Both the position numbers and the translations under genes were made by a program. Below, one piece after another: positions 4,761-44,341 of a DNA stretch of 64,000 bases (its first letter is position 1; every line of letters starts with the position of its first letter). The stretch comes from Dehalococcoidia bacterium (GTDB taxonomy: Bacteria > Chloroflexota > Dehalococcoidia > DSTF01 > JALHUB01). Location of the stretch: positions 4,014 to 68,013 of the forward strand of contig DAOULP010000114.1 in NCBI GenBank assembly GCA_034420175.1. Direction: 5' to 3'. The notes beneath the pieces were generated by a model, which saw only the letters and a list, made by a program, of their open reading frames with translations, was not told the origin of the DNA and ran no database searches.

Positions 4761-4761
4761 T

Positions 4762-4830: not shown

Positions 4831-4869
4831 ACGAAGCCAGCTCGGAAGGACCTGCCGCTGGGGGACTCC

Positions 4870-7478: not shown

Positions 7479-7481
7479 TCG

Positions 7482-8792: not shown

Positions 8793-8803
8793 GGCGAAGA
8801 GGC

Positions 8804-27755: not shown

Positions 27756-27830
27756 ATCATACCGATACTTGCCGGTCCTGCTCCCCGTGCTGTCCGCCAG
27801 CTCAGTCGTCGAGCCCAGCGCCCTCTTCCC

Positions 27831-28208: not shown

Positions 28209-31200
28209 CTTGTCACCGAGCACGCCGCTCCCGTCCTGATAGCCAGGGCCTGGTAGGCACCGTACTGCAGAGGCCCGGACCAAAGCGGCACGCCCTCCGG
28301 GGTGCTGACGACGAGGAAAGCGCTCCACCCAGTCAAGGCTACCGCATTGGCATAGCAGAGGGGAGTGCGGGTCGTGGCGAAATCCCACGCGGGATCCACC
28401 AGATGGCGATACACAAGAGTATAGGGGTGATAGTCCCGATAGGCTCTCACAATGTCCCCCCAGTCGATCCCCCACCCGCCGCCAGAAGGCGGGGCGACCA
28501 ATCGGGAGTTGAGGCAGGCACCGCCAGCGATCACCGGGCCACAGAGCGAGATCGCGCCCACTGGAGTCGGCGTAGGTGTCCCGAATGCCCTGCCCTCCAC
28601 GTTGCACAGTCCCCACGGGTCAACCCACCTGACCGGGTTGTTCAGCACGTAGGCGTAGGGGTTCTGCGACTGAGGGAACTGCGCCAACCCCGGCCACGGG
28701 TCCTGACTCACGAACCGCCCGATGGCCGGGTCGTAGTAGCGGGCGCGGAGGTAGTAGAAGTCCGTCTCCTCGTCCCACTGCTCGCCGGTGAAGCGGAAGT
28801 GGGTGTCAGCAGGGCCCTCGTATTCCCTCGCCGCGCCGAACACGTCGTACCGATAGGTCCCGGTCCTGCTCCCCGTCCCGTCCGCCAGCTCACTCGTCGA
28901 GCCCAGGCCGTCGTACAGGTAGTACGTCGCCGTCTCCCCCTCCACCTGCGAGATCAGGTCCAGGCCGTAGACGTAGTAGGTCGTCCCGCCAGCCGCCGTC
29001 TCCTGGAGGATCACGGGCAGGGCCGAGCCGGCGTCCCAGATGTAGTCGGTCGTCGCCCCGTCCACCGTGCGGCTGACGCGCAGGCCGTCGCCGTTGTACT
29101 CGTAGGTCGAGGTCACACCATTGACCGTCGCCTCGATGAGCCGATTCTCGTGATCGTACTCGAAGGTGTCCGCTCCGCGGTCGGTCTGGTTGCCGTTGTC
29201 GTCGTACTCGTAGTCCACAGCACCGTCACCGCTGCAGCCGACCACAAACGTCTGCGCCAGCACCGCCCCCACATCACTCATGTCGATGGCGCTGTTGGGT
29301 GGGCCCGCCGGGTCGATGCCGGTCTCCGGGTCCGGGCCCAAGCCAGGCGAGCGGTCGTACTCGATCCCATCGGCCACGCCGTCGGGCGGAATGTCGGCGA
29401 CCGTGTCTCCGTTGGTGTCGATCCCCTTGTCGGAGTCGTAGTCCACGCCGTTGGCGTTGGGGGGCCCGCCTTCTTCGGTCCAGACGTAGAACAGCACCGC
29501 CATCACGTCACCGATGTCCACACCTCCCGTCTTGGTGCCATTGGCTGCAGGGTCTGCCCTGGCAGGTACGGGCACGTCGTAGACATCGTAGTAGGCGTTG
29601 GGGTCGAAGACGCCGCCCAGGGCCGCCTCCTCGCTCTGGGTGCAGCCGTCGCCGTCGGCGTCCAGTGAGCTGTAGGCGCTCTCCATCTGGTGGGCGTCGT
29701 CGTACTCAGAGGGGTTGTCCCACTTCCAGAGCCGATTGCCGACCTCGTCGTAGTGGTAGGTGTCGAGCTGCGACTCAAGGTTCACGACGTTCCTCAGGCG
29801 GTAGAGCTGGTCGTAGGTGTAGTCGGTGTAGTCCGTCACATCACTAGTATCGGTCAGTTGCGTCCGGTTCCCCACGGCGTCCATGTCGTAGGAGAAGGAG
29901 GAGATGAGGACAGGAGGGTCACCAGGGCCCTCGTTGACGAGGCTCTCCAGGCGGTCGGCGTTGTCGTACGAGTAGGTTGAGACCACGTCGTTGGGAAGAG
30001 TCGCGTCAGCAAGCAGCCTCGCGTCGTCGTACGTGTACGTCGTGACTGCTTCGTTCCAGTCTGTCACTGTCTCCAGGTTGTGCGCCTCATCGTAGGCGTA
30101 CTCGACCTCGTTGCTTCCACCCGGGTAGGTGATAGAGGTCCGGTTGCCAACGTTGTCGTATCCGTAGGCGACCGTGCGCGAGCCGGGGAAGGTAACGGAG
30201 GTCAGGCGGTCCACGTCGTCGTAGTCATAGCTGGTGGTGCCGCTCCCGTCCTCCATCGTCTCGCGGTTGCCCACGGCGTCGTAGGCGAAGGACACGTCGT
30301 CCGTGCCGGCGGGGTAGTCGATGTCGGTGAGGCGGTTGGCGGCATCGTAGGTGTAGGTCGTGGTCTGCTCGTTGCCATCGGTGCGCTCAGTGACGTTGCC
30401 GGCGGCGTCGTAGTCGTAGGAGGTGACGCGGCTGAGGGGATCGGTCACGGACTCCAGCCGGTTGAGGGCGTCGTAGGCGTAGGTGGTGGTCTCGTCGCGG
30501 GCGTCGGTCACCGACGTGCGGTTGCCGTTGTCGTCGTAGCCGTAGGTAGTGCTCTGACCCAGGGCGTCTATCACCTCGACCAGCCGGTCGGCGTCATCAT
30601 AGCCGTAGATGACCGAGGGACAGCCGTCGTCCTCCACCGTGTCGCTGTCGTCGTCGACACCATTGCCCGTGCCGGCCGAGCCGCAGTCATCGCCAGTCTC
30701 GGCGTCCCCGACGGTCTCCCGATTGGCGTCGGTGACGGTCTTGAGGCTCCCCTTGGCGTCATAGGTGTAGGTAGTGACGTTGTCCAGGTTGTCGGTGGCA
30801 GTGACGACGTTGTTCTGAGCGTCGTAGGCATAGGTGGTGGTATGGCCGAGCTCGTTGGTGGACGTGAGCAGGCGGCCGCCCAGGTCATAGGTGAAGGTCG
30901 TCTGGGGAGGGTCCTGGTGTCCGGAGAAGCGGGGGTCTGTGACAGCGGTCTGGTTGCCGTAGTCGTCATAGTCAAACTCGGTGGTGTTGCCGGTGCAGTC
31001 GGTGAGTGTGGTGGACTCGATGAGCTCCGTCACGAGGCCGGTGTCGTCGACGGTGAAGCAGATGCGGGCCTTGGTGGCGCCGCCGTCGTCCTTGCGGATG
31101 ACCTCAGTGACGTTCCCGTCGCCGTCGTACACGTAGTCGGCCTGCCGGCCCAGAGGGTCGGTTGCGAGGTCTACGTCGTTGTTGGCGGTGTAGATGAACT

Positions 31201-33250
31201 CCCAGTCGACGCCGCCCTGCGCCAGGTCGCAGTTGGCGTCGGTGTTGAGGGCGTCGATGATCTGCGTGACGTTGCCATAGGAGTCGTAGTCGTAGGCGGT
31301 CTTGTGGCCTTCCTGGTCGGTGACGCAGGTAGGGTTGTTGTCAGAGTCGTAGTCGTAGTGGACGACGCCGCTCAGCGCGTCCGTGACGTCCGTTGTGCGG
31401 AAGGACGTGTCAAAGTCGTACGTGCTCTTGTGGCCGAGCGGGTCCACCACGACGGTCTGCCCTGGGTCAGGCTCGGGCGTGACGCCGGGGCAGTTCTCGG
31501 TCTCGTTTCCGTAGGCGGGTTCAGTGCCGTAGTAGATGCAAGTCACGTGCTCCTCGGCGTCCCACTGCTCGGCGACACGGTTGGCCGTGTCGTAGAAGTT
31601 GCGGCTGGCGACGTGGCCGTTGGCGTCGGTGAGCGAGGTCATACGGTGGCTATCGTACTCGTAGGCGGTGGTGCCGCTCTTGACGTCCGTGACGGTGACG
31701 AGGTCGCCGGTGCCGGCGCCGTAGGCGAACTCCACAGTCCTGGTGTCGGGAGAGGCCAGAGGATCGGTGACGCTGGTGATCTGGTCGGGGTAGTTGCCGT
31801 TCTCGTAGCCGAACGTGAGGGCTCGGTCGCTGGAGTCCGTCACCGACGAGAGTCGGTCGCTGCCATCGTAGGCGAGCGTTGTCGTGTTGTCGTTGCGGTC
31901 CCTGATGTACTCCAGCCTTCCGTCCTCACTGAAGTCGTAGCTGATCTGTGACTTGGTGGTGAGCGTGTAGGTATCGTCCGGGTTCTGGACGAGGGTGTCG
32001 TAGTTGCCGGGAGGGGCCGTGAAGGAGCCGCCGTCAAGGTGGAAGTAGGCGGTGCCGCCGTGGGCGTACCTGACGCTGACCGAGCCGTCATCGTCGATGC
32101 GCAGCGAGGCGGAGTAGGTGTGGCTCCAGTGGGGGCCCAGGTCACCGACGTAGCTGGACAGAGACAGGTACCTCCTCGTGAACTCCAACGGGACCCCCCT
32201 GCCGGGAATGAGCAGGTCGGTGTGCGAGTGCATCGACTGGCCGGTGGTGGTGTCGAAGGGGTCCCCATCGGTGGCGCTGTGCCAGTCCGGCGCTGATATC
32301 CGCGCCAGCTGATCGGCAGCCACGTTGTCCACGGCGCTGGTGCCGACGGACGAGTGGAACGTGATGATGACGTTCTTGTCGACGTAGGCGTCGCCGACAT
32401 CCAAGACCTTGGTCGTCCAGGCCCTGCTACACGCCGAGCACTGGACGGTGTCCTCGTAGAGCAGGGGTATCGTTTCGGTCGACTCCCATACCTGGATCAC
32501 CAGCTCATGATCGTCCACTTCCGGGAAGGCGTAGTCGACCTCTATCCAACGGGCTGCCAGCACGAACTCCTCCGAGACCAGCCAGCCGCGAAAGAGAGGA
32601 TGCGCCCCGTGGGAGGCATCACTCGCCAACGTCACGTCCTCGGCCTCCCACGCGACGACCACGTCGTGCTGGGTGCCAACATCATCGACTTCGATTGTCC
32701 CGGAGTACGCTTCCACGCGGATTGTGACCGTCTTCCCCCACCAAGGCCCTAGGATGGGAATCGACTTCTCAACCCACGTCTGGCTACATTCGGGGCCGCT
32801 GCAGTCGATGAGCACCCAGGATCCCAACTCCTCGCCCCCCTCGCCGCCATCGAGGATCTTCACCTCAGCATGATTGGTCCCAGGCGTTGGCGCCTGCCAG
32901 CGGAGCCGAACCGCCTCGGTCCCCGGGTCCTGAGTCAGCTCGTAGGCGGAGGACTCAATGTAGCCGCTGGGGCTGATGGTTGCGTACCCGCCCTCGAACG
33001 ACGCTCCGGCGTACGTCCAATGGTCGTCACCAGCGGAGAAGTCGTAGTTGAGGGGCGGCGATCCAATCTCAACTGAGGGAGCGTCGAACGTGTTATTGAC
33101 CGGTGCCACGGTCGTTGCGCCGGATGCGGCTTCCGCCCGGCGCGGCGTATCGTGTGCGGCGGGGAGCCCAAGGCGGGCGGGGGCACTCGTGTTGGAGACC
33201 ACCAGAAGAGCGCTGAGAACGAAACCAGCAAGGAGAAGTCGGCGAAGCAT
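28205..33250 (-). CDS. RHS/YD-repeat polymorphic toxin (~1681 aa) with an embedded dockerin-like module and a unique C-terminal toxin tip
   Basis: Start taken at MLRRLLLAGFVLSALLVVSNTSAPA, a signal-like sequence. Dozens of YD repeats (YxYDxxGN...), then the core-end FRFTGEQWDEETDFYYLRARYYDPAIGRFVSQDPWPGL...DPWGL, then a ~140-aa C-terminal domain. Residues ~1240-1400 carry ...VDIGDVMAVLFYVWTEEGGPPNANGVDYDSDKG...AIDMSDVGAVLAQTFVVGCSGDG. Confidence 0.9.
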   Translation of the reverse strand: MLRRLLLAGFVLSALLVVSNTSAPARLGLPAAHDTPRRAEAASGATTVAPVNNTFDAPSVEIGSPPLNYDFSAGDDHWTYAGASFEGGYATISPSGYIESSAYELTQDPGTEAVRLRWQAPTPGTNHAEVKILDGGEGGEELGSWVLIDCSGPECSQTWVEKSIPILGPWWGKTVTIRVEAYSGTIEVDDVGTQHDVVVAWEAEDVTLASDASHGAHPLFRGWLVSEEFVLAARWIEVDYAFPEVDDHELVIQVWESTETIPLLYEDTVQCSACSRAWTTKVLDVGDAYVDKNVIITFHSSVGTSAVDNVAADQLARISAPDWHSATDGDPFDTTTGQSMHSHTDLLIPGRGVPLEFTRRYLSLSSYVGDLGPHWSHTYSASLRIDDDGSVSVRYAHGGTAYFHLDGGSFTAPPGNYDTLVQNPDDTYTLTTKSQISYDFSEDGRLEYIRDRNDNTTTLAYDGSDRLSSVTDSSDRALTFGYENGNYPDQITSVTDPLASPDTRTVEFAYGAGTGDLVTVTDVKSGTTAYEYDSHRMTSLTDANGHVASRNFYDTANRVAEQWDAEEHVTCIYYGTEPAYGNETENCPGVTPEPDPGQTVVVDPLGHKSTYDFDTSFRTTDVTDALSGVVHYDYDSDNNPTCVTDQEGHKTAYDYDSYGNVTQIIDALNTDANCDLAQGGVDWEFIYTANNDVDLATDPLGRQADYVYDGDGNVTEVIRKDDGGATKARICFTVDDTGLVTELIESTTLTDCTGNTTEFDYDDYGNQTAVTDPRFSGHQDPPQTTFTYDLGGRLLTSTNELGHTTTYAYDAQNNVVTATDNLDNVTTYTYDAKGSLKTVTDANRETVGDAETGDDCGSAGTGNGVDDDSDTVEDDGCPSVIYGYDDADRLVEVIDALGQSTTYGYDDNGNRTSVTDARDETTTYAYDALNRLESVTDPLSRVTSYDYDAAGNVTERTDGNEQTTTYTYDAANRLTDIDYPAGTDDVSFAYDAVGNRETMEDGSGTTSYDYDDVDRLTSVTFPGSRTVAYGYDNVGNRTSITYPGGSNEVEYAYDEAHNLETVTDWNEAVTTYTYDDARLLADATLPNDVVSTYSYDNADRLESLVNEGPGDPPVLISSFSYDMDAVGNRTQLTDTSDVTDYTDYTYDQLYRLRNVVNLESQLDTYHYDEVGNRLWKWDNPSEYDDAHQMESAYSSLDADGDGCTQSEEAALGGVFDPNAYYDVYDVPVPARADPAANGTKTGGVDIGDVMAVLFYVWTEEGGPPNANGVDYDSDKGIDTNGDTVADIPPDGVADGIEYDRSPGLGPDPETGIDPAGPPNSAIDMSDVGAVLAQTFVVGCSGDGAVDYEYDDNGNQTDRGADTFEYDHENRLIEATVNGVTSTYEYNGDGLRVSRTVDGATTDYIWDAGSALPVILQETAAGGTTYYVYGLDLISQVEGETATYYLYDGLGSTSELADGTGSRTGTYRYDVFGAAREYEGPADTHFRFTGEQWDEETDFYYLRARYYDPAIGRFVSQDPWPGLAQFPQSQNPYAYVLNNPVRWVDPWGLCNVEGRAFGTPTPTPVGAISLCGPVIAGGACLNSRLVAPPSGGGWGIDWGDIVRAYRDYHPYTLVYRHLVDPAWDFATTRTPLCYANAVALTGWSAFLVVSTPEGVPLWSGPLQYGAYQALAIRTGAACSVTR
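28696..28920. repeat. RHS core-end recombination repeat (copy C); copies A at ~26411..26620 and B at ~27611..27830
   Basis: ~210-bp near-identical stretches (GAACCGCCCGATGGC.GGGTCGTAGTAGCGGGCGCGGAGGTAGTAGA...GGTGAAGCGGAAGT.GGTGTCAGC...) in direct orientation at the three RHS core-end positions. Confidence 0.7.
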
Positions 33251-33663
33251 GGCTTCCTCCCTGTACCCTGCACGCCGGCCAGGCGGATCCAGACGGTTGA
33301 CCCAGATGCTGTTCACGATGAGAGGACTATGGCTCGTAGACGGTCCACCAGGTAGGAACCAAAAGCCGAGTAAGACTAACCCGCGGCGTTCCGCGCTGTC
33401 AAGCGATAACCTATCAGGATAACATAAGATCGGAGGCACGCGTTTCTGCGCTCAAAGAGGGTACGCCTCTCGTACCGGGTGTGCGGTCGTGGCTGGCGGT
33501 GCCCGCATTGTGGCGGCACCACGCGCTATGGGGTCATGGTGTGCGCTGCTTCGGCCTCCCGGAATCGCCTCGGGTTGCTGGGAGTCACACGGGAGAGGGG
33601 GAATGCGATACTCACAAACGAGACCCGCCGTTGGCGATCGCTATGCCGTAGGGCCCGGTCCCG

Positions 33664-35181
33664 CTAGTCCTCGGCCGCCCGCCGAATGGCCTCCCTCAGT
33701 CGGGCGACGTCGTCCTCGTCGACACCGGGAAGGTCCAAGGGTCCAACGTAGCTCTGGACCGACTCGTGGAGCTCCCTGAGCTTCTCCTTGCCCTCGGTGA
33801 TCGCTCGCCGCTCCTGGGGGCGGGCCAGGTCCTCCCCCTCGAACTCCGCCGACATCTCGTCCAGCACCTGCTCCACCGCCAGCAGCTCCCGCCACCTTAG
33901 CTCGATGCCTTCTTGGAGGTGGGTGGTCAGGGCCTCGGCGACCTCGTTGCGGCCGGAAGAGCCCTTCCGCGGCACGCCGAGCTGGTGGCTCAGGTGGTCG
34001 AGGCCCAGGCCCAGGGGAGCGTGCTGCATGGCCTGGTGGGCGGCCTCTCGGGCCCGGCGCAACCGTCGCACCTCGTCCGCCTTCGAGTCGGGCAGGACAT
34101 CGAAGCGCAGCCCCCAGTCGGGGAACACCGGCACCGGCTCACCGATCCAGTCGTAGAAGGAGCCGCTGTTGACATAAAGGCGACGGCCTCGGCGGGTGCC
34201 GGCCAGGGTTCCTTCCTCCACCAACCGGGCCAGCTCCAGAGTCTTCTCCTTGCGCACCCGCTTCCAGGCCGCCTCCTTCACCAGCGGCTCGTCGTCCCCT
34301 TCCTGGGGCTCTAGGTCTTCATCGGTCCATCCCTCGTACCTCTCGGCCAGCACCTCAGCGAGCTCGGAGGCGGGGACCATCTCCTCGCGGGCCGCCGCCA
34401 GCCGCTGCTGGTAGTCGCTTCTGGTGATGGGCTCCTTGGTGTGGAGGGCGATGTAGGAACCCAGGTCCATCGCCCTGATGGCCCAGAGGTGAAGGGAGAG
34501 GAGCCACCCGTAGCGGGCGTTGAGGAGCTCCAGTGCCTGCCGGAGAATGATCACGTAGAGGGAGACGACCTCGTAGGCTCCTCTCATGAGGCGGATGTAG
34601 TGGTTGAACTCGGAGGCTTGGTGGGGCGGCATCTTGGAGCGGGGCTCGGGGTGCTCGGGCACGCCCTCCTTCCAGGCCCGGAGGACGAGGACGGCCCGCT
34701 CCCTGGCGGTGAGGGCGGGGGCGAGCTTGTTGAGCCTGCCTTCGATGCTCACCGTCGCCACCCCCAATGGCGACCTCGGCCAGTGGCGGCGCTCTCCTGC
34801 AGCCGGGGGAACAGCAGGGACTCCAGGGATCGGACCCTCTCCTCGAGCTCGCCGGCCTCCAGGGCCTTGAGGGAGACCTGGGCCAGGTAGGCGAGGGTGC
34901 GGGAGCGGGCGATGGAGTTCTCCAGGCTGAGGGTGTCCAATACCGCGATCTCCAAAAGCCTGCGGACCTCCTCCACGCTGCCAAGGCCCTCGAAGTCGTA
35001 GGCCCCGGAGGGTCACCTTCTCCTTGCGGCGGCGCAGCCCGCCGAGGCGCCGGGCCTCTGTCGCCTCCTCGGCGTGGTCGGGGGAGTGCCAGAAGCAGAA
35101 GTCGCCGTCGCGGAGCGCCGCCTGGCGGCAGGGCTCTCCGCTCTCGTTCCGGGCCTTACAGGTGCGTTCGGCCATAAGCAC
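33664..35181 (-). pseudogene. Satellite/phage-like hypothetical protein (~505 aa, N-terminal zinc-ribbon-like CxxxC...CxxH), apparently double-frameshifted
   Basis: N-terminus MAERTCKARNESGEPCRQAALRDGDFCFWH and the C-terminal ~330 aa are protein-like. The middle segment in this frame is P/G/R-rich junk. A protein-like translation (AYDFEGLGSVEEVRRLLEIAVLDTLSLENSIARSRTLAYLAQVSLKALEAGELEERV...) exists in the +1 frame between a CCGGGG run at ~34985 and a GGGGG run at ~34770. Confidence 0.5.
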
Positions 35182-35310
35182 TCATAACCTCTGCTTATCG
35201 GGGGCGATGCTTATCCCCTGGTGGCGCACCATCAAGCGATAGTGTGGTGCCTCTGTGTACGAGGCAGACCCCCGCGTGGGGGATCTGCTCTCCGGGACTC
35301 TGGGCCGCGG

Positions 35311-35760
35311 CTAGGCCGTGGGCTCCGGGTCGTCGTTCCTGTGGCCCTCGGGGCAGGCCTCGGGCTCTTGGCCGTCCCCGACCACGAAGCCCTTCTGGCA
35401 GGCGGAGCACCAGTAGCGGACCTGACCCTCCTCCAGCCCTTGCTGGTTGGGGAGCTTCTTGATGGTCCGGAACTTGGAGCCCTTCCCCTTGCCCTTTGGC
35501 TTGGACTCCTTGGCGGCCGGCTCCTGTCCCTCCAGGGACCAGAACCGCCAGCCGTTGCAGGCGACACCGCCCATGACGGCGCTGCCTGCTGAGGAGGGGC
35601 TCTTGAACTCCTTCCCGTTGAGGTCGGGGTGGTCGGGGCAGTCGAGCTTGAAGCCGACCTTGTCGTCCTCCCCGGCCGTGACCACACACGCGTAGGTGTG
35701 GCCCTTGTACTTCGCCGCCAGGCGGGTCCCCGCTTCCAGCTTCCTGTTTTCGAGTGCCAT
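35311..35760 (-). CDS. Hypothetical protein (149 aa), K/G-rich middle, C-terminal CxxC
   Basis: Clean ORF on the same strand as the satellite genes. No motif assignment. Confidence 0.5.
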   Translation of the reverse strand: MALENRKLEAGTRLAAKYKGHTYACVVTAGEDDKVGFKLDCPDHPDLNGKEFKSPSSAGSAVMGGVACNGWRFWSLEGQEPAAKESKPKGKGKGSKFRTIKKLPNQQGLEEGQVRYWCSACQKGFVVGDGQEPEACPEGHRNDDPEPTA

Positions 35761-35811
35761 TGGGCACCTCCTTTCTTGGTGGTCGATACATCACTCGGCG
35801 TCGAGAGGAAG

Positions 35812-37065
35812 TCAACGGGGTGTGTCCCCCTTCTTTGGACTCAGTTCTGCCTTCAGACCGGTGAAGGCCTCCCAACGGGCGAGCACGACCCGGCAATAGT
35901 GGGGGTCGAGCTCCATCCCGTAGCAGACGCGGCCGGTACGCTCGGCGGCGATGAGGGTGCTGCCTGAGCCCAGGAACAGGTCCAGCACCACGTCCCCCGC
36001 CCGGCTGCTGTTCTCGATGGCGCGCTCCACCAAGGCCAGGGGCTTCATGGTTGGGTGCAGGGCCGACTCCGCCGGCCGGTCGATGGTCCAGACGTCGCCC
36101 TGGTCTCTGTCCCCGCACCAGTGGTGGTCGGCGCCGTCGCGCCAGCCGTACCAGATGGGCTCGTACTGGCGCTGGTAGTCGGCCCTTCCCAGGACGAAGC
36201 GGTCCTTGGCCCAGATGATGGTGTCGGACCAGTGGCCTCCCAGTTCCCCGAGGACGCGGGAGACGGTGGGCCACTCCCTGGTGGACATGCAGACGTAGAG
36301 GGCGCCGTCGACCGCGTCCAGCAAGTTCCTCGCCCACGCCCGGCAGAAGGACTCCCACTCCTGGGGAGGGAGGGCGTCGTTCTGGATGCGCCTCTTGCGG
36401 GCGCCGCGTTGCTGGCCGCCGTGGTCCCCGTAGGCCACGTTGTAGGGCGGGTCGGTGAAGGCCATCTGAGCGTTACGGACGTCCAGCAGGCGCCGTACGT
36501 CGCCCACGTCGGCGGCGTCGCCGCATAGCAACCGGTGGTCCCCCAACCGCCACAGGTCGCCGCGTTTCGCAACAGGGGCGGCACGTGCGGCTTCCAGGGC
36601 GGCATCGAGGTCGAAGGACTCGGGCCTCTCTCGTTTCTCCCTGTGGTCCAAGCTCCTGAGGAGCTTCGCCAGCTCCTCCTCGGTGAAGCCGGTGAGGGTG
36701 AGGTCGAGATCTTCAGACGGCTGAAGATCGGCCAGCAGCCGGGCGAGGAGCTCTTGGTCCCAGGTGCCGGAGATCTTGTTGAGAGCCAGGTTGAGCAGAT
36801 GGGCCTTCTCGGGGGAGAGGTCGACGAAGATGACCGGCACCGTCTTGAGGCCCAGCTTGCGGGCGGCGAGGAGTCTTTGGTGGCCGCCGATCACGATTCG
36901 GTCATCGTGTCTGGCGATGATGGGGTCGACGAGGCCGAACTCGCGGATGCTGCGGGTGAGGGCCTCCAGCTCGGCGTCGGAGATCCGCCGGGGGTTGGCC
37001 GGGTCGGGGTGGAGGTCGTCGATGGGGACCTGCTCTACGGTGGGTGTGGCTGTCGCCGCGGTCAT
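35812..37065 (-). CDS. ParB-like nuclease domain / DNA methyltransferase fusion (beta-class, DPPY)
   Basis: Start at MTAATATP with a GGAGTGAGGAG RBS. N-terminus PIDDLHPDPANPRRISDAELEALTRSIREFGLVDPIIA...GGHQRLLAARKLG is the ParB N-terminal domain. FTDPPYNVAYG is MTase motif IV. VVLDLFLGSGSTLIAAERTGRVCYGMELDPHY is motif I. Confidence 0.85.
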   Translation of the reverse strand: MTAATATPTVEQVPIDDLHPDPANPRRISDAELEALTRSIREFGLVDPIIARHDDRIVIGGHQRLLAARKLGLKTVPVIFVDLSPEKAHLLNLALNKISGTWDQELLARLLADLQPSEDLDLTLTGFTEEELAKLLRSLDHREKRERPESFDLDAALEAARAAPVAKRGDLWRLGDHRLLCGDAADVGDVRRLLDVRNAQMAFTDPPYNVAYGDHGGQQRGARKRRIQNDALPPQEWESFCRAWARNLLDAVDGALYVCMSTREWPTVSRVLGELGGHWSDTIIWAKDRFVLGRADYQRQYEPIWYGWRDGADHHWCGDRDQGDVWTIDRPAESALHPTMKPLALVERAIENSSRAGDVVLDLFLGSGSTLIAAERTGRVCYGMELDPHYCRVVLARWEAFTGLKAELSPKKGDTPR

Positions 37066-37070
37066 TCTCC

Positions 37071-37544
37071 TCACTCCTGCACCATCCTTCTGTACTCCTC
37101 GATCGCCACCACGGCCGGGCTCTCTCCCTCCTCCTGCGGCTGCTCGTGCCCGATGCCGGCCCGCAGCCGTGCCATAGGGCTCAGGCACAGTTGGCGGCCC
37201 AGCTCCGCCAGGGTCTCCTCCGCGTCCCGCTTCATGAACCAGAGGGGGTTACGCACCAGGTGCCCGCGTGCTCCCTTCAGCAGCTTCCCTGACTGCTGCA
37301 ACAGCCTCTGGAGCTCACGCCAGTCCGCCCAGGCTTGGCAGTACCTGATGAGGACGGCCCTGTCGATGGAGGAGAGAAGCTCTGCCGCCTTCAGCTCCCC
37401 GACGATGCGACGCCACTCGGCCTTCGCCTCGGGCGGGAGGTCCCTCGGCATGGCTGGACGGCCCACCATGACCGACTTGCCGCTGGTCTGGCGGCGGTTG
37501 CGGCGGCGGGCGTAGGGCTTGGGTAGCGGTCCTCTCTCACCCAT
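37071..37544 (-). CDS. Phage terminase small subunit, P27 family-like
   Basis: ...LPPEAKAEWRRIVGELKAAELLSSIDRAVLIRYCQAWADWRE...LVRNPLWFMKRDAEETLAELGRQLCLSPMARLR matches the P27-family pattern (W...L...D...L..YC.AW...NP...elGLTP.sR.RL). Confidence 0.75.
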   Translation of the reverse strand: MGERGPLPKPYARRRNRRQTSGKSVMVGRPAMPRDLPPEAKAEWRRIVGELKAAELLSSIDRAVLIRYCQAWADWRELQRLLQQSGKLLKGARGHLVRNPLWFMKRDAEETLAELGRQLCLSPMARLRAGIGHEQPQEEGESPAVVAIEEYRRMVQE

Positions 37545-37681
37545 TCAGCAGCCCTTCCTCTCCATGTGATCTTTTCTGGGAAAACCCGTACAGGGTCTCA
37601 GATTGGGCTGGCAGCGCTCGGCGTCCGCCGTCGAGCCCAAAAACATCGACCGCCTCCCCCCGGTCCCCAGAGCGGGGCTCC

Positions 37682-38002
37682 CTAGCGTCCACGGCTGGCC
37701 TCACGCACTGCCGCCTCGAAGGCCGAGATGATGGACCAGTTGACGAGGACCAGGAGGCGGTCATCCGGCAGCCCTCGCAGGGACTTCGGCAGGTGGGGGC
37801 GTAGCTCGGCCAGCACAGAGGCCACCGTCCGGTCCAGGGGTACTCCCAGCGCGACGAGGAGTTCCGCCTTGTGGTCGTGGAGGGCCCGGCGCAGGTCCTC
37901 CGGAAGGGGGCTCGCCCTGCCACGCACCAGCAGCCGGTCGTTCTCCACCACCAGGTCGGCGTCGTGGGCCCGCACCTTCTCGATGATCTCGATGGCGTTC
38001 AC
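37682..38002 (-). CDS. Small hypothetical protein (106 aa) between the primase and the small terminase
   Basis: Protein-like ORF (MNAIEIIEKVRAHDADLVVENDRLLVRG...). Its stop overlaps the primase region by 4 nt. Confidence 0.45.
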   Translation of the reverse strand: MNAIEIIEKVRAHDADLVVENDRLLVRGRASPLPEDLRRALHDHKAELLVALGVPLDRTVASVLAELRPHLPKSLRGLPDDRLLVLVNWSIISAFEAAVREASRGR

Positions 38003-40638
38003 GTGACCTCCTCTACCCAGGCGGGCTCTTCCTCGTCAGAGCGAAGTTGCGGGACGTTGTGCGGGACGTTGGAGGGTACCAGAGCCGAAGGTCCCGCGGG
38101 ATCGGCGCTGGTCTTGAATCTGTCTGCGGGACCTGCGGGACGTTGCGGGACGTTTGACGCGGTTCCTTCCACATCTTGTTCTGGAGATGTTCTTCGCGCG
38201 TGGAGGTCGGAAAAAGGTCCCGCAAGGTACCGCACGTCCCGCAACTGAATCTGAGAATCGGTGTCTTCTTGCGGGACGTTGGCCGAAATCTGCGGGACGT
38301 TGAGGGCAAGGTCCCGCATTCCCGAAGCCTCTAAGTGGTACATCGTCGCCTTCTCGTGCGCGTCGGCTTGGGTGCGGACCACCAACTCACCGAAGCAGCG
38401 GTCCCGGCGTCGCCGCAGCGCCAGCCCGAGGCGGGTCGTCAGCGCCCGGTCAGTGGCGTCGTCCTTCGCCCCACCGAAGACCGACGGCAACAGTTCCTGA
38501 TCACGGCACAGGGCGTACAGGTCGCCAGCCTTCACCGGCGTCTCTGTGTGCGCTTCCCACCAGGCACTGACGAACAGACGCCACTCCTCGGTCTCGGCGT
38601 CGGTCCGGGCGTAGAGCTCCTCCCGGTTCTCGAGAAACCCGCCGATGCTTGCCGCCTGCAGGATGCCCCCGACAACCGACGACCACGCTTCATAGGATCC
38701 CAAGGGCACCCCGTCCCAGGCGGGCCGCCCGCAAGCGATCCAGTGTTGGACGAGCACCAGGAACGCCCATACCAGTTCGTGACGGTGACGTCGCAGCCAG
38801 GCTGGAAGATCTGGGTGACGGAACGAGGTCCGCTGCCAGGGTCGGTCTACTCGGGCGTCCAGCCGGACCCACACTGTCCTCCGGGCGATCTCGTTGTCGA
38901 GCTGCAGGTTGTTGCCGGTAGCCAGCCAGACACAGCGAATCGGCAGTTCGACGATCTGGTTCCGGCCGAGGATTCGGTCCGACCACTGGCGGGCCGTCAG
39001 GGCCGCCGCGAGTGCGGCCGACCGGAGCGGCCGCTTGACGTTGTCGAGGAGCACAACCGGCAGGCCGGCGCAGAGACTGGAGGTGATCCGCTTTCGCATC
39101 TCCTCCTCGTGCCGGGTCTCCGTCATCACGGCGGGCGGCATGCCCAGGGCGACGATCCCGATGCCGTGGGCCAGCAGGCCCTTGCCGGTGCCGGCCACCG
39201 GACAGTCAATGGCGAACAGGGGAGTTGGCCCGTCTATCAGCTCTCGGGCAACAGCCGTGAGGGGTGTGGCGACCGTGTTGGCACAGGAGGCCTCGTCCAC
39301 GAAGGGGAAGTCGCTCAGCCATTCCAGCCTGACGATCTCCTTCGCCCGCTGCAGATCGGTGGCGTCTGGCCTTTCGGCGACGGACGGCAGTGCCTCGCCG
39401 CTCGGCTCGTAGTAGAGGCCGGTGTCCCGCTGGTAGCCCGCCTCGGTGACCAGCGAGCCGTTGGCCGCGAAGACCGGCGTCTTGACCACGCCGCGAAGGA
39501 TGGGTAGAGGGCGGGGGAGCGCAAGCATGTCTTCGACCACCTCCTTCGGCGGCCAGGCGGGCCGCAGTCCTTCCTTGCTCTGCCGCAGCCACTCAGCAGA
39601 GCGGTCCAGCCGCCCGCGGAGGCCAGCCGGGGTCAGGTGAGAGATGCGAGCGCAGCCGTCGTCGTCGCGCCCGATCTCGGCGATGACGCCGCCGTGGCGG
39701 AACAGTACTGGAGGAGAGTCGCTGCCCAGGAGCGCATCCCAGCCGTCCTGGGCGAGCGCGTGGAGACGGCGGTCGGTGACCATGATCCGTCGCTGCTTGC
39801 CCAACACCATCACCGGATCGTGGGTGGGCCGCCGCTCACGCCCCTCGATGAAGTGCGTCCCGATGTCCAGGAGTTCGCTCTCCGGCAGCGGGGGTGAGCA
39901 CTGCCGTTTGTTGACGACCTGCAGCAGATCGATAAGCGTCTCCGCCGCCATCCCCTCCACCCAGACCTTGGCGGCGTACGAAACCAGCGCATTGTGGCGG
40001 CCCCCACCCTCGTGGACGATACCGGCCAGTGCCTCGTAGTCTCGGCGGCCGTCTGGCTGCTCGGAGGCGAGGGCGAACCTGAAGGCGGGCAGCAGCCTGG
40101 CGAGCCAGGCAACGGGGTCGTCCACCTCCATCGGTGCTATCCCGTCAGGGCTCAAACGGACGTACGGCCTGCCCCCGATGACGCTTGGCGGGACGAGGAC
40201 GTAGGCGCGGGCGGCCTTGAGTTCACCCAGCTTGCGTCCATCCTGGAGGTGGAGGGTCCGAGACTGGACGGGTGCTGACGAAACGGCGACAATGTGGAGG
40301 CCTTCACGAGGGGTTCGGATGATCTCGGTCGTCAGGGGGAGAGCGACATCCTTGACGAGTTCCTCGGCCACGTCTGGTAGGTCGATGTCGATGCGAGGGG
40401 CCTGGTCGGTGCAGACAGCGAGGTTGGCGGAGGGCCACCTCTGCCACCAGCCCTGGATGGTGTCAGGGTCGGAGGTAGCGTCGTCAAGTCCGTTCTTGGT
40501 GAGGGGGTGCTTGCCGGGAGACGGGCAGGCCGCCGCTTTGGGGCACTGGCAGAGGCCGTCGTCATCGGTCCACCAAATCGGTAGCACACACGGGCCCACG
40601 CGGGAGCGCCCCAAGGCGGCCTCCAGCAGCGGGTTCAT
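37999..40638 (-). CDS. Bifunctional primase-polymerase (PrimPol N-terminal domain) / P4-alpha-like replication protein
   Basis: N-terminus ...PGKHPLTKNGLDDATSDPDTIQGWWQRWPSANLAVCTDQAPRIDIDLPD is the PrimPol signature. Central ...DCPVAGTGKGLLAHG is a P-loop-like motif. The C-terminal tail contains NVPQ repeats encoded by the iteron array. Confidence 0.85.
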   Translation of the reverse strand: MNPLLEAALGRSRVGPCVLPIWWTDDDGLCQCPKAAACPSPGKHPLTKNGLDDATSDPDTIQGWWQRWPSANLAVCTDQAPRIDIDLPDVAEELVKDVALPLTTEIIRTPREGLHIVAVSSAPVQSRTLHLQDGRKLGELKAARAYVLVPPSVIGGRPYVRLSPDGIAPMEVDDPVAWLARLLPAFRFALASEQPDGRRDYEALAGIVHEGGGRHNALVSYAAKVWVEGMAAETLIDLLQVVNKRQCSPPLPESELLDIGTHFIEGRERRPTHDPVMVLGKQRRIMVTDRRLHALAQDGWDALLGSDSPPVLFRHGGVIAEIGRDDDGCARISHLTPAGLRGRLDRSAEWLRQSKEGLRPAWPPKEVVEDMLALPRPLPILRGVVKTPVFAANGSLVTEAGYQRDTGLYYEPSGEALPSVAERPDATDLQRAKEIVRLEWLSDFPFVDEASCANTVATPLTAVARELIDGPTPLFAIDCPVAGTGKGLLAHGIGIVALGMPPAVMTETRHEEEMRKRITSSLCAGLPVVLLDNVKRPLRSAALAAALTARQWSDRILGRNQIVELPIRCVWLATGNNLQLDNEIARRTVWVRLDARVDRPWQRTSFRHPDLPAWLRRHRHELVWAFLVLVQHWIACGRPAWDGVPLGSYEAWSSVVGGILQAASIGGFLENREELYARTDAETEEWRLFVSAWWEAHTETPVKAGDLYALCRDQELLPSVFGGAKDDATDRALTTRLGLALRRRRDRCFGELVVRTQADAHEKATMYHLEASGMRDLALNVPQISANVPQEDTDSQIQLRDVRYLAGPFSDLHARRTSPEQDVEGTASNVPQRPAGPADRFKTSADPAGPSALVPSNVPHNVPQLRSDEEEPAWVEEVT
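38040..38330. repeat. Iteron array, putative replication origin: >=10 copies of TGCGGGAC(G/C)T in both orientations
   Basis: TTGCGGGACGTT at 38047, 38059, 38133, 38144, 38269 and 38290. Inverted copies (ACGTCCCGCA / GGTCCCGCA) at ~38091, 38215, 38236 and 38308. They lie within the last ~100 codons of the primase gene. Confidence 0.65.
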
Positions 40639-40681
40639 AGCGCGACCACCCTCTGGAGCTTGGTGTAGTTCTGACTCGCAC

Positions 40682-41161
40682 GCGTGCCCCTGCGGCTTCT
40701 ACCAGGACCCGACGAAGGAGTGTAGCTGCAGTGAATCGACGGTCAGCCGCTACCAGAAGCGGATATCCGGGCCGCTCATGGACCGCGTGGACATCTTCGT
40801 CGAAGTGCCGCGCGTGGACTACGAGAAGCTGGCCGCCGAGACGGCCGGCGAGCCTTCGGCCGCGGTTCGCGCCCGGGTAGAGGGCGGCCGGCGGGTCCAG
40901 GGGGCCCGCTTCGAGGGCAGCCGCCTGGCGTGCAACGCCGAGATGGGCCCGACGGAGGTGCGGGAGTTCTGTCAGGACCGGCTGGAGGAGTCCGCACGCT
41001 CCCTCCTTCGGTTGGCCATGCAGCAGTTGGCGCTGTCGGCGCGGGCCTTTCACCGGGTGCTCAAGCTCGCTCGCACCATCGCCGACCTTGCCAGCCAAGA
41101 AGAGATCGCCTCTCAGCACGTGGCGGAGGCGATCCAGTACCGGAACCGAGGCCGTGCCTGA
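40682..41161 (+). pseudogene. comM: 3' fragment (~158 codons) of comM/yifB (Mg-chelatase-like AAA+ protein)
   Basis: ARPCGFYQDPTKECSCSESTVSRYQKRISGPLMDRVDIFVEVPRVDYEKL...FHRVLKLARTIADLASQEEIASQHVAEAIQYR aligns by eye with the YifB/ComM C-terminus (CxCG..GDP...C.C......Y..RiSGPllDRiDl.veVp...). No N-terminal AAA+/Lon part is found anywhere in the window. Confidence 0.8.
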
Positions 41162-41210
41162 GGCCGCGGACGGACTCGTCCGCGGCTGCCATTGGAAGAG
41201 GTGAACTCGT

Positions 41211-42593
41211 ATGAATCGATTCGTGTTGTTCGTAGTGGTCTTTGCGCTGGTGCTCGCGGCGTGCGGGGGGAACGGCGAGCCCGCCGGCCCGACCCAGCCT
41301 GCTGAAGATGGTGCTCCCTCCGGTCCGGTAAGCATCACCTTCTGGCACTCGGAGACGGCGTCGTCCAGCGACAACCTCGTGAAGCTCATCGATCGGTTTA
41401 ACGCCTCCCAGGACGAGGTGAAGGTGGAGCCCATCTTTCAGGGCACCGACGCCGACCTGACGCTCAAGCTCATAGCCGGTCTCTCCGGCGGGAACGTACC
41501 GGCGGTCGCCTACGCGTCAGAGCCGTACACGCAGACGATGATCGATAGCCAGCAGATAATCCCCATCCAGGAGTACGTCGACCGCGACGGCTATGACCTC
41601 TCGGATATCGCCGCGCCGGCGCTCGCCTACTACACCGTTGACGACACCCTCTACGCGATGCCGTACAGCCTGGCGGTGCCGCTCATGTACTACAACAAGA
41701 TCCCATTCCGAGAGGTGGGGCTCGACCCGGAGCAGCCGCCTCGAGACCTTGACGAAGCACGGGCCGCATCGGAGAAGCTCCTGCAGAGGGACTCGGCCGG
41801 CAACATCACCCGTCACGGCTTCGCGCTGGAGATTCACCCCTGGTACATGGAGCTCATACTGGCCGGCGCCGGCGAGCTCTATGTGAACAACGAGAACGGG
41901 AGGGAAGGCGTCGCCACGGAGGTCGCGTTCGACAACGACGCCGGCCGGACGCTGTTCCAGTGGTGGCACGACATGGTTGCCGAGGGCCTGGCTCTGAACG
42001 TCGGTGTGGACCCCAGCGGCGCCAACGGCCTGCTGGCGGTTGGCGCTGGACAGGCTGTCATGGTCTTCAGCACCTCGTCCGCGCTGCGTTCGATCTTCGA
42101 TGTCCTGGAGACGGGACTAGAGGGCCTCGAGCTGGGCGTCGCGCCCGTTCCGGGCATCCCCGGGGCGGTGCCGGAGGGTTCGCCCGGTGTCTACTCTCGG
42201 GCGCTGTGGATCATGAGCCCGCGCCCGGAAGCGGAGCAGGAGGCGGGCTGGAAGTTCATTCAGTGGCTGATGGAGCCGGAGCAGCAGGCGGAGTGGTTCG
42301 CGGGAAGCGGGTACCTCCCCGTACGCGAGTCTGCCTACGACCAGCCGGCGGCGCAAGATACCATCGCTAGCTACCCGGAGTTCCAGATACCGGTCGACCT
42401 ATTCGCGAAGACGGCGACAACGACGGCTGCCCTCGGTCCCCTCCTTGGTCCCTTCCAACAGGTGCGGGAAGCCGTCATTGATGCTATCGAGAGCTTGGTA
42501 TCCGGCAGCGCCGACCCGGACCAGGCGATGGACGCCGCGGTCAAGGCGGGGAACGCTGCCATCGACGAGTACAACCGCCGTCTCGACCGCTGA
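41211..42593 (+). CDS. ABC transporter extracellular solute-binding lipoprotein (family 1, sugar-type)
   Basis: MNRFVLFVVVFALVLAACGG lipobox. Overall SBP-family-1 pattern (..ITFWH...W...F..AS.NLVKLIDRFN...). Its RBS lies within the comM fragment's end. Confidence 0.8.
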   Translation: MNRFVLFVVVFALVLAACGGNGEPAGPTQPAEDGAPSGPVSITFWHSETASSSDNLVKLIDRFNASQDEVKVEPIFQGTDADLTLKLIAGLSGGNVPAVAYASEPYTQTMIDSQQIIPIQEYVDRDGYDLSDIAAPALAYYTVDDTLYAMPYSLAVPLMYYNKIPFREVGLDPEQPPRDLDEARAASEKLLQRDSAGNITRHGFALEIHPWYMELILAGAGELYVNNENGREGVATEVAFDNDAGRTLFQWWHDMVAEGLALNVGVDPSGANGLLAVGAGQAVMVFSTSSALRSIFDVLETGLEGLELGVAPVPGIPGAVPEGSPGVYSRALWIMSPRPEAEQEAGWKFIQWLMEPEQQAEWFAGSGYLPVRESAYDQPAAQDTIASYPEFQIPVDLFAKTATTTAALGPLLGPFQQVREAVIDAIESLVSGSADPDQAMDAAVKAGNAAIDEYNRRLDR

Positions 42594-42830
42594 GCGTGTG
42601 GTGAAGCGAGAGAGCCTCGCCCTCGACCCACCGTGACCAGTGGCGCTCTGGGCGAGGTGTTGGTGGCGGCGGTGCGCAGGCATCTCTGGCCGTGCGGCCG
42701 TCCCCAGCCCCTGACGCGACTCCGTCGCCCAGTTGGCTGCGGACAGTATCCAGGACCAAGCGCCGGCATCGGATCATCGGGCCGAACATGCTCTTGCCAG
42801 GCTCTGTGCTCCGGTCTAAGATCAGGTAGT

Positions 42831-42906
42831 GCCCCCGTAGCTCAGTTGGATAGAGCACCGGCCTCCGGAGCCGGGTGCGTGGGTTCGAGTCCCGCCGGGG
42901 GTACCA
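42831..42906 (+). tRNA. tRNA-Arg (anticodon CCG), CCA encoded
   Basis: GCCCCCGTAGCTCAGTTGGATAGAGCACCGGCCTCCGGAGCCGGGTGCGTGGGTTCGAGTCCCGCCGGGGGTACCA. Cloverleaf has a 7-bp acceptor stem, D-arm GCTC/GAGC, anticodon stem CCGGC/GCCGG with loop CTCCGGA, and T-arm GGG..TTCGAGT..CCC. Confidence 0.85.
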
Positions 42907-44341
42907 TACCCACACAAGTTGGTCGGCACATATCACGCCGAATCACAAACAGCGGCTCGAACTCCGGCCACGGGCGGACCCAGAGCCGCTTGCCGCGAGT
43001 ATCTATCCTCACCCACTGGAACAAGATGCGGCAGGCCTCCCGCCGCTCTTCCATCGTCATCCCGTTCCACACCTGGCCGATGCTGGTCAGCCGCTCTCCG
43101 GCGAAGCGGACGACGTCCGGAGAGCCGACCGGTAGCCGGGCGAGACGATCATCGATGGCCTGCAGCTGAAGCCGCCATTCCTGCTCGGACAGCGCTGCTT
43201 CGACGTAGGCCATCGTGGCTCTCCGCTTCTTGGCCTCCAGTTCCGTTCGCTCACCGTCGTCGTGCTTGGGCAAGCGTCGCGCTTCGCGGTCGATCTCCGC
43301 CAGCCAGTCGCGGTCCATCGCCATCTCGTGGATGATTCGGTCGACCTCGGCCTCCGCCTGCTCGCACCGCCACATAGCCCCAGCGATGGGGCAGGGATCC
43401 CCGCGCAGGTGGGAAGTCTCCCGGTAGTAGGCGTATCGGTTGCCCGTCCCTGACTTGGTTTGGTGGATCGGTCCGTCGCACTCAGAGCACCGGGCGAGGC
43501 CCGAGAGCATTCGCGGCTGCCGGGCGTGAGAGGACTGCCTCCGCACGCGCTGTTGAGCTGCCAGCCACAGGTCCTCCGTGGTGATGGCCTCGTGCGCTCC
43601 CCGGCGGCGCTCGCCCTTGTAGTGCACGAATCCGGCGTAGAAGTCGTTCTCGATGATCGACTGCACAGCGGAGACTGTGAACGTCGTGTGGCCCTGCTTG
43701 GAGTGCGGGCGGAGTCCCTGCGCGTTCCAGCGGCGGGCGATCTCCGTGTAGCCCGCGCCGGCGGCATAGTCGCGCACGGCTTCCGCGATCGCTGCTGCCT
43801 CCTCGGGCACCGGCACCAGCGGATGCTTGGTGGTTTCCCCCCTGCGATAGCCAAATGGAACATCCCCGACATGTAGCCCCAGCTCGAACCGCTCCCGCAT
43901 CGACTTCTTGATGTGGAAGCTCATCTTGCGAGACCAGTACGAGCCAAGGCTCAGGTCGATGCCGAGCATCATGCGCCCTTCGGGCGTGTGGTAGTCAATG
44001 TCGGGGCTAGAGGCGTTGACGAGTTTGATGTCGTTCCGATCGAGGAGATTGAAGATACCGTGTCCCAATTCCTCGTCGCGGGCGAAGCGGCTTAGGTCGT
44101 GCACAAGCAGGACATCGATGACGTGTTGCTCCACGTCACGCTTGATATCAAGCATCGTCTTGCGCTTGCCGATTTCGTTGGTGAAGGCGGATTCACCGGC
44201 GCCGATGTACTCGCGGACCACCTGCCAGCCTCTTTGCCGACAGAGGTTCCCAATCACCCGGCGCTGGGCGTCCAGCGACAGTCGCTCGCTCAATGCCTGA
44301 TCGGCGTCACTCACTCGGAGAAGCCGGCCCGCTCGTGTCAT
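42842..44341 (-). CDS. Large serine recombinase (integrase); the ORF's last ~21 codons overlap the tRNA-Arg gene
   Basis: N-terminal resolvase catalytic domain LLRVSDADQALSERLSLDAQRR...VVREYIGAGESAF...IDVLLVHDLSRFAR. Recombinase domain ...GDVPFGYRR...F.R. Zn-ribbon-like LARCSECDGPIH. A coiled-coil follows. Confidence 0.85.
   Translation of the reverse strand: MTRAGRLLRVSDADQALSERLSLDAQRRVIGNLCRQRGWQVVREYIGAGESAFTNEIGKRKTMLDIKRDVEQHVIDVLLVHDLSRFARDEELGHGIFNLLDRNDIKLVNASSPDIDYHTPEGRMMLGIDLSLGSYWSRKMSFHIKKSMRERFELGLHVGDVPFGYRRGETTKHPLVPVPEEAAAIAEAVRDYAAGAGYTEIARRWNAQGLRPHSKQGHTTFTVSAVQSIIENDFYAGFVHYKGERRRGAHEAITTEDLWLAAQQRVRRQSSHARQPRMLSGLARCSECDGPIHQTKSGTGNRYAYYRETSHLRGDPCPIAGAMWRCEQAEAEVDRIIHEMAMDRDWLAEIDREARRLPKHDDGERTELEAKKRRATMAYVEAALSEQEWRLQLQAIDDRLARLPVGSPDVVRFAGERLTSIGQVWNGMTMEERREACRILFQWVRIDTRGKRLWVRPWPEFEPLFVIRRDMCRPTCVGMVPPAGLEPTHPAPEAGALSN

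Follow-up and report, generated by a model that had tools for sequence, protein, structure and literature searches.

A 43.6-kb integrative island in comM of a Chloroflexota bacterium and its putative satellite-like replication and packaging module

The closest described analogues of the element reported here are the ssrA islands of Dehalococcoides, integrative and mobilizable elements (IMEs) with a DsiB serine recombinase (McMurdie et al. 2011, PMC3146451). We analyzed a 64-kb stretch of DNA from a Dehalococcoidia bacterium (contig DAOULP010000114.1; the whole stretch is called the window), in which a block of genes at 33664-40638, encoding a primase, a small terminase subunit (TerS) and a fusion of ParB with a methyltransferase (MTase), lies against a fragment of comM. 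This block is one end of an integrative island of 43,622 bp, to all appearance intact, that a large serine recombinase (LSR) inserted at about codon 349 of comM in a metagenome-assembled genome (MAG) of the Chloroflexota. We lean toward interpreting the block as the replication and packaging module of this island, with a satellite logic like that of the phage-inducible chromosomal islands (PICIs). Whether the element works like a satellite is, as judged from its sequence, about evenly balanced. Almost all known phage satellites and islands resembling them come from Proteobacteria and Firmicutes; this element points to a family in the Chloroflexota, which are abundant and mostly uncultured environmental bacteria.

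The comM element shares several features with the ssrA islands. Both are from the same phylum, and both have at attL an LSR (~530-540 aa in the ssrA islands) whose 3' end overlaps the att site and which ends at a stop codon in host DNA. Both also have a protein with a ParB domain, a gene for DNA modification, a large protein that begins with a primase-like domain and tens of kb of cargo. Capsid and conjugation genes are absent, and transfer by phage or host has been proposed for the ssrA islands. However, the target here is comM instead of ssrA, and the DsiA-type small serine recombinase, RecF-like protein, Mom and embedded tRNA-like locus of those islands were not seen. The ssrA islands carry the six-gene module dsiB-dsiA-recF-parB-mom-700aa at attL, whereas here other genes stand beside the LSR and the replication and packaging genes (ParB-MTase, primase, TerS) are at the attR end. 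The true stop of the ssrA-island LSR was left open in 2011 (PMC3146451). In the comM family, attP-form contigs reveal it: the integrase gene ends on the other side of attP and overlaps the primase start.

PICIs, which include the Staphylococcus aureus pathogenicity islands (SaPIs), likewise combine an integrase, a primase-replicase and TerS without structural or lysis genes (SatelliteFinder; de Sousa et al. 2023, PMC10085698). The attP-form order of integrase, pri-rep and terS and the accessory defence cargo are also shared, and tyrosine and serine integrases are exchangeable in the PICI core set (PMC10085698). The comM element differs in its size, in its serine integrase and in having the att site between int and pri, so that the core is split when the element is integrated. 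Neither an AlpA/MerR/Stl regulator nor a capsid-morphogenesis gene was recognised, and no helper is known; the likeness to PICIs rests on shared Pfam families and gene order. LSR islands and PICI-like elements are known kinds of element that are essentially undescribed in the Chloroflexota, and the junction of an excision-completed integrase with a primase gene is unusual. A full-text literature search gave 5 papers containing both "Chloroflex" and "phage satellite", and among the three listed neither term stood in a title or abstract; a search for comM-targeting serine recombinases found only false matches ("pers. comm.").

Insertion into comM and the limits of the element

Coordinates are window positions, and negative values lie to the left of the window on the same contig; L and P numbers denote database contigs of relatives and database proteins, respectively. 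The left flank was read along contig CAZWDW010000003.1 (246 kb) of MAG GCA_964632905.1, which carries the window sequence, and the junction between comM and the element in the window is present also in an independent short-read assembly. Domains were scanned with Pfam, PHROG and NCBIfam, and defence genes with PADLOC; the element was scanned as open reading frames (ORFs) of at least 120 aa. The closest genome match was L005, an "uncultured Chloroflexia" MAG (ComM identity 86%) with a full-length comM followed directly by tRNA-Arg. The features of the insertion are listed below.

-2948 to -1368, convergent with the comM 5' fragment: LSR of 526 aa, the cognate integrase (Resolvase, Recombinase and Zn_ribbon_recom; Pfam)
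1-40684: portion of the element inside the window; its left end, at -3990 to -1368, comprises the attL core, LSR and comM 5' fragment
40635-40689, minus strand: element-side arm of attR, which in the attP form encodes the last 16 LSR residues, TRASQNYTKLQRVVAL, and the stop TGA overlapping the primase ATG
40685-40689: attR core TGCCC, identical to the attL core at -2937
40682-41161, plus strand (40685-41161 if counted from the attR core): 3' fragment of comM/yifB, about codons 350-509 (TIGR00368; Mg_chelatase 158-206/207; Mg_chelatase_C)

The match of the ORF at 40682-41161 to the YifB model TIGR00368 (499 positions) is confined to positions 348-499, so that this ORF represents the last ~159 codons of comM, in agreement with the first-pass annotation, which had placed a comM end just beyond the primase start. 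A tblastn search of the window with the N-terminal 340 residues of intact ComM from L005 gave no match, which rules out a rearrangement of comM within the window. The 5' part, whose search that annotation had advised together with a comparison to an uninterrupted comM, was found on the same contig 2.9 kb left of the window (349 codons, -3990 to -2890). Upstream of it are relA/spoT and an isocitrate/isopropylmalate-type dehydrogenase gene, as in relatives, and it is followed by the convergent LSR.

The att core TGCCC is common to attL, attR and the L005 attB. At attL, …ATGAATCCATGCCC is joined to ATGGCGTCAGGAAC…, at attR …GACTCGCACGCG is joined to TGCCCCTGCGGCTTC…, and the intact attB of L005 reads …ATGAACCCCTGCCCCTGCGGCTTC…; the reconstructed attB junction of the window element is …ATGAATCCATGCCCCTGCGGCTTC…. 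Excision in silico of the 43,622 bp between the cores produced a 1530-nt ORF of 509 aa, which aligned gap-free from 1-509 to 1-509 with the intact ComM proteins P0002 (93% identity) and P0001 (88%), and only after this excision was ComM matched over its full length by TIGR00368 (ChlI, AAA+, Mg_chelatase_C). Because the gap-free 509-aa ORF is restored, the insertion was precise and conservative and deleted nothing. Of the two possibilities raised at first, insertion into comM or deletion of part of it, the former was thus correct and the latter was not. The comM piece is also not a duplicate borne by the element, since both halves flank the element and rejoin without a gap. Together, the att cores and the restored ComM make the block the attR end of a 43,622-bp element; it had been delimited at 33664-41161 with the suggestion that it might belong to a larger composite island, and the suggestion, not the boundaries, was right. 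Insertion would inactivate ComM, and excision would restore it.

The site is used repeatedly. Among the best 120 ComM homologues of the clade, 18 are cut at the same codon region, being 343-376 aa long and without the C-terminal domain. In all 4 of the truncated loci examined (L031, L115, L116, L117), an LSR of ~530-550 aa lies directly downstream at the same nucleotide position and is followed by 2-3 small genes and a ~310-aa Xer-like tyrosine recombinase, as in the window element. One of these loci, L117, contains at 2982-10315 a complete 7.3-kb element between both comM halves, which encodes two LSRs (one per end), HipA_2/DUF3037, a TubC_N protein and a tyrosine recombinase that is truncated. 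Primase and TerS are missing from it, and within the comM insertion-site family it is a minimal or decayed form. The defined set of attB, attP and LSR is a candidate for a new integrase tool.

The putative replication and packaging module and the att site inside the integrase gene

All named genes of the block are co-oriented on the minus strand (ORF map with Pfam, PHROG and NCBIfam), and the primase, small protein, P27-type TerS, ParB-MTase and unknowns of the first-pass annotation were all found at the positions it gave. From the attR end inward, the features are:

37999-40638, minus strand: primase, 879 aa, with Prim-Pol (3e-20) and PriCT_1 (1.5e-4) at the N-terminus and a P-loop C-terminal domain
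38048-38318, both orientations: iteron array, a putative origin, with 10 copies of A[C/G]GTCCCGCA in the primase 3' end
37682-38002, minus strand: TubC_N-like protein, 106 aa (Pfam), its start overlapping the primase stop
37071-37544, minus strand: TerS, P27 family ("type B"; Pfam Terminase_4 2.5e-23; TIGR01558 79 bits against a cut-off of 45.6)
35812-37065, minus strand: ParB_N and N6_N4_Mtase fusion, 417 aa (Pfam; phrog_498 1.8e-143)
35311-35760, minus strand: RAMA/DUF2924/DUF4357-like protein, 149 aa (Pfam), kept in L030, L035, L118, L119 and L120
34749-35181, minus strand: DUF5763-family Zn-ribbon gene, frame-split, with the Zn-ribbon N-terminus at 35010-35181 (Pfam and relatives)
33664-34761, minus strand: conserved helical protein, 365 aa, the last gene of the module, with syntenic homologues in L035 (60%), L119 and L120

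The C-terminal half of the primase matches phage "DNA polymerase/primase" PHROGs, and the primase had no match in the PDB sequence search. TerS stands alone in the window copy, which has no large terminase subunit (TerL), and shares 36% identity with its "type A" counterpart in L030. The 365-aa protein had no match in Pfam, PHROG, NCBIfam or the PDB sequence search, and a single-sequence AlphaFold model was unusable (pLDDT 43.7). The two unknowns first described, one with a Zn-ribbon, were partly correct. The DUF5763 Zn-ribbon is real, but the 505-aa ORF at 33664-35181 is, by comparison with relatives, two genes and a frameshift: one extra C near 35010-35013 splits a gene that is a single 133-142-aa ORF in relatives. 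This frameshift may be a sequencing error, because the closest relative MAG is full of frameshifts; L005 has several apparent ones at 7755-10530 in housekeeping genes (comM, isopropylmalate/isocitrate dehydrogenase), a sign that MAGs of this family contain sequencing errors at homopolymers. Capsid, portal and tail families were not detected in the block (Pfam, PHROG), and none of these, nor any lysis or conjugation family, was found across the element (Pfam, PHROG, PADLOC), as had been stated for capsid and tail genes. A sigma-70 promoter scan of 33300-41300 gave no site, a result of little weight as the scan is not validated for this phylum.

The primase-linked origin proposed in the first-pass annotation is supported by the iteron array, whose 10 copies lie within the last 300 bp of the primase gene. 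Seven copies are exact, all in 271 bp, with no exact copy elsewhere in the 64 kb; with up to 1 mismatch, there were 21 matches in the window compared to 7.5 ± 3.1 in shuffles. The same array is kept in number and order in L030, L118, L119 and L122, and distant primases have other repeats at the equivalent place, the behaviour expected of initiator-specific iterons.

The module is syntenic in at least 10 contigs at 52-100% identity (L029, L030, L035-L038, L118-L120, L124), in the order primase, (TubC_N), packaging cassette, ParB-MTase, RAMA, DUF5763 and the ~360-aa protein. Replication genes with TerS and without structural genes are thus a signature conserved across many relatives, in which no structural gene was found beside the module within up to 10 kb. 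The packaging cassette takes four forms:

TerS alone: window, L119, L120
two TerS paralogues, 36% identical to each other: L037, L038
TerS-HNH-TerS: L118, L124
HNH-TerS-TerL: L029, L030, L035, L036

The att site falls inside the integrase gene. In the integrated state, the LSR ORF crosses the attL core and ends at a TAG supplied by comM (…PDAMGMDS, then the stop). In the reconstructed circle, whose attP junction is …GACTCGCACGCGTGCCCATGGCGTCAGG…, it reads on as …PDAMG-TRASQNYTKLQRVVAL, a conserved 16-residue tail after the junction glycine, and its TGA overlaps the primase ATG (ATGA). The attR arms of relatives have the same design, with tail GTRASQNYSRLQRVVAL and a GTGA overlap in L030/L029, tail GTRAGQNYSRLQRVVQL and a TTGA overlap in L118, and a tail frame that is likewise open in L124 and L125. 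Across five diverged arms, variable sites in the tail frame number 5, 5 and 10 at codon positions 1, 2 and 3. Among LSR homologues in the protein database, 14 of 120 end in the tail G[T/I]RxGQNYxxLxRVVxL, and the others end in comM-antisense sequence.

The attP junction was found in nature for relatives only (L122/L123, L125/L156). On L122, the tail-bearing LSR P0262 is followed by a primase gene with a 4-nt overlap, then a TubC_N gene and HNH. In L030/L029 the comM 3' part adjoins the primase instead, and the sequence that follows the core matches that of L122 at 99.97% identity over 3459 bp, so one element has been assembled in both junction states. L125/L156 show the attP configuration in a second relative; the whole 10.6-kb IMG/VR contig L156 encodes, co-oriented, a tyrosine recombinase, 3 ORFs, an LSR, primase, TerS and ParB-MTase. 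A scan of IMG/VR with the window LSR found only a 34% relative. We regard the limits of the element, the LSR, the att sites, the origin and the attP-spanning gene arrangement as close to certain. The block had been called a remnant and possibly degenerate, a description at odds with the precise att sites, the intact LSR, primase and TerS, and a near-identical relative in both integrated and attP forms.

A different conserved open frame, …GRVEI.GI…R..A.GVA followed by a stop, was observed upstream of the primase at L119 9700-9852 and L037 2100-2251, where the primase lies away from comM; here too, the stop codon of the frame overlaps the ATG of the primase gene. The frame suggests that a second type of integrase and att site exists in which stop and start are coupled in the same way.

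A possible satellite-like lifestyle and its alternatives

The proposed mechanism would begin with excision, after which transcription and translation of the LSR would cross attP into the primase operon. The primase-helicase would fire at the iteron origin and amplify the circle, and the stand-alone P27-type TerS would recruit the large terminase and procapsids of a helper phage. The island, which is about the size of a phage genome, would be packaged and transduced via helper capsids; the ParB-MTase would methylate element DNA against restriction, and the ~30-kb middle section would be defence and toxin cargo. The attP-spanning arrangement suggests a simple mechanism for coupling excision to replication. 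More tentatively, these elements could form a new family of large, cargo-laden Chloroflexota satellites, with attP inside the serine-integrase gene, swappable packaging cassettes that match helpers and a reversible switch of the transformation helicase ComM. In that more doubtful extension, excision would gate replication and packaging by supplying the end of the integrase gene and joining its stop to the start of the primase-TerS operon. The element is a vehicle for ~30 kb of defence and toxin genes, and if it is phage-borne, as it may be, it would be a significant route of defence-gene exchange.

Several observations weigh against a satellite lifestyle. No helper phage was found; the closest TerS proteins (79-81%) are all in sibling elements, and TerS matches on phage contigs were at most 37% identical (TerS scan). 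No sign of encapsidation was seen. At 43.6 kb, the element far exceeds the PICI median of 9.5 kb and maximum of ~28 kb (PMC10085698). The element has no recognisable AlpA/Stl-type regulator or recombination directionality factor, and the DUF5763 gene is frameshifted in the window copy. Several large cargo proteins have no annotation, which leaves room for an unrecognised transfer function. The exact attP pattern of the window element was absent from IMG/VR, and in the second sample both junctions were integrated forms. Instead of free circles, the contigs in the attP form could represent concatemers or tandem arrays, and one attP-type LSR is on a 318-kb contig. Conservation of the tail could come partly from a DNA-level constraint on the att arm.

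These results allow for more than one scenario. The island could be integrative and replicative without being a satellite, that is, an IME like the Dehalococcoides ssrA islands that is transferred by another route (transformation, vesicles or generalized transduction), with TerS a relic or a DNA-binding or regulatory protein. The att sites, LSR and origin fit this scenario equally well, neither a helper phage nor packaging was seen, and the size and cargo resemble those of the ssrA islands, which are proposed to be IMEs relying on host or phage transfer (PMC3146451). However, TerS is kept in every relative examined despite 50-100% divergence of the module, and the packaging genes occur in alternative configurations (TerS alone, two TerS paralogues, HNH-TerS-TerL), which together argue for selection on a packaging function rather than decay. 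We consider this scenario rather improbable, but a serious competitor. Alternatively, the block could be the replication and early-packaging region of a decayed prophage that lost its head, tail and lysis genes and holds island cargo instead. The HK97-style HNH-TerS-TerL trio of relatives, the frequent occurrence of ParB-MTases of this type beside terminases in viral contigs and the frameshifted gene would agree with decay. Yet portal, capsid and tail genes are absent within up to 10 kb of either end in relatives, synteny without structural genes persists over protein identities of 52-100%, the LSR is intact and the att sites exact, and a 99.97%-identical relative is known in both junction states; decay is therefore unlikely. 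Least probable is a satellite remnant of the P4/PICI kind that is self-contained in ~7.5 kb, has no integrase and bears no relation to the 35 kb beside it. A 7-kb module does lie between non-phage genes in L119 with no recombinase within 10 kb, but the only att junctions here are 43.6 kb apart and enclose the whole region, the attP form joins the LSR stop to the start of the primase, and the defining genes of P4 and PICI are absent.

Among other known systems, the tycheposons of Prochlorococcus (Hackl et al., bioRxiv 2020.12.28.424599), compared here by description, resemble the comM element in having a site-specific integrase (tyrosine, sometimes large serine), primase/helicase genes, terS ("PICI-like") or large cargo, and a modular core-plus-cargo organization. 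Tycheposons differ in targeting mostly tRNA genes with a specific tyrosine-recombinase clade, and their PICI-like and cargo types are usually separate, whereas the comM element combines TerS with 30 kb of cargo. P4 has in common with it a multidomain primase-helicase, an origin of repeated short motifs and the satellite lifestyle proposed for the comM element. Nevertheless, the comM element has no D5_N/DUF5906 or TIGR01613-type primase C-terminus and lacks psu, delta, sid, eps and alpA (Pfam, NCBIfam), uses a serine instead of a tyrosine integrase and is four times larger. The P4/PICI membership given in the first-pass annotation was accordingly not sustained, as the element lacks a P4-type helicase domain, psu/sid/delta, a regulator of the AlpA/Stl type and any gene for capsid morphogenesis and is ~4 times as long as the median PICI. 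Capsid-forming PICIs (cfPICIs) encode their own major capsid, portal, protease and head-tail adaptors with HNH-TerS-TerL; in the comM family, HNH-TerS-TerL occurs in relatives only, with no capsid or portal. Complete temperate prophages have head, tail and lysis modules, none of which was found in the comM element (ORFs of at least 120 aa, Pfam and PHROG). Circularisation creates gene or operon continuity in other elements as well, as in the joint-spanning transcription of Tn916 and the SSV1-type integrases split by integration. In contrast to these, only the last 16 codons of the serine recombinase are exchanged here, and the recombinase stop overlaps the start of the primase operon.

Cargo and a neighbouring island

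From attL, the order of the element is LSR, a 195-aa protein, a 405-aa protein, a lipoprotein, a tyrosine recombinase, ~30 kb of cargo and the block. The 195-aa and 405-aa genes beside the LSR had no helix-turn-helix (HTH) or AlpA match (Pfam empty; PHROGs, one family of unknown function); in some relatives, HTH_3 or HTH_17 genes are found beside the LSR. Homologues of the Xer-like recombinase adjoin the comM LSRs in L031, L115, L116, L117, L123 and L156.

2366-3295, minus strand: Xer-like tyrosine recombinase, 309 aa, a conserved core gene of the family, always 3-5 kb from the LSR
3361-33439: cargo, ~30 kb, with DUF3800, DndB/DpdB-like and N6/N4 MTase, TIR-HEAT, caspase, SNase, MBL-fold, PD40, a 1744-aa RHS toxin and unknowns

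A plus-strand cluster at 5961-14405 encodes a DndB/DpdB-like protein, an unknown of 387-436 aa, an N6/N4 methyltransferase and a protein of 1186 aa that has no annotation. These genes may make up a so far uncharacterised defence system based on modification; the PADLOC matches were limited to weak ones for DpdB and generic ones for MTases. The 1744-aa RHS/YD-repeat toxin gene, at 28205-33439, is directly beside the conserved module, and small unannotated ORFs downstream of it (27111-28616) could be immunity genes.

A second island lies directly 3' of tRNA-Arg(CCG) (42831-42906; the Rfam scan found tRNA only) and runs right to ~58650. Its own LSR (459 aa, 42842-44221, minus strand) has an ORF that extends antisense into the tRNA and stops there, so that the integrase overlaps att as in the comM element. 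We rejected this LSR as the cognate integrase of the comM element: it is 26% identical to the comM-site LSRs (270 residues), its ORF runs into tRNA-Arg, and it belongs to the separate island. The nearest integrase had been placed 30 kb from the block, which is not correct: this LSR lies nearer, Xer-like genes are at 2366-3295 and 46087-47013, and the cognate LSR is at -2948 to -1368, just outside the window. Genes of 75 aa and 248 aa, an HTH gene and the Xer-like recombinase at 46087-47013 follow the right-hand LSR in a layout like that of the L115 comM element, and the cargo includes a 1695-aa DUF4011/AAA_11-12/MTES_1575 helicase-nuclease and an SbcCD-like pair. The far end of this island was not found in the window, nor was a tandem duplicate of the tRNA-Arg 3' end. 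Between comM and tRNA-Arg, an ABC-type solute-binding protein gene (41211-42593, region 41187-42789) is absent at L005, where comM is followed directly by tRNA-Arg; it is thus an insertion here or a deletion there.

The Xer-like recombinase genes at 2366-3295 and 46087-47013, one per island, are 91% identical. In the left copy, 42 nt of the 5' coding region are directly repeated (3214-3255 and 4683-4724) around the DUF3800 gene, an arrangement that resembles the insertion of a cassette, through site-specific recombination, into the 5' end of the recombinase gene itself. Analogous 117-nt repeats of the recombinase 3' end surround a 577-aa gene in L122/L123.

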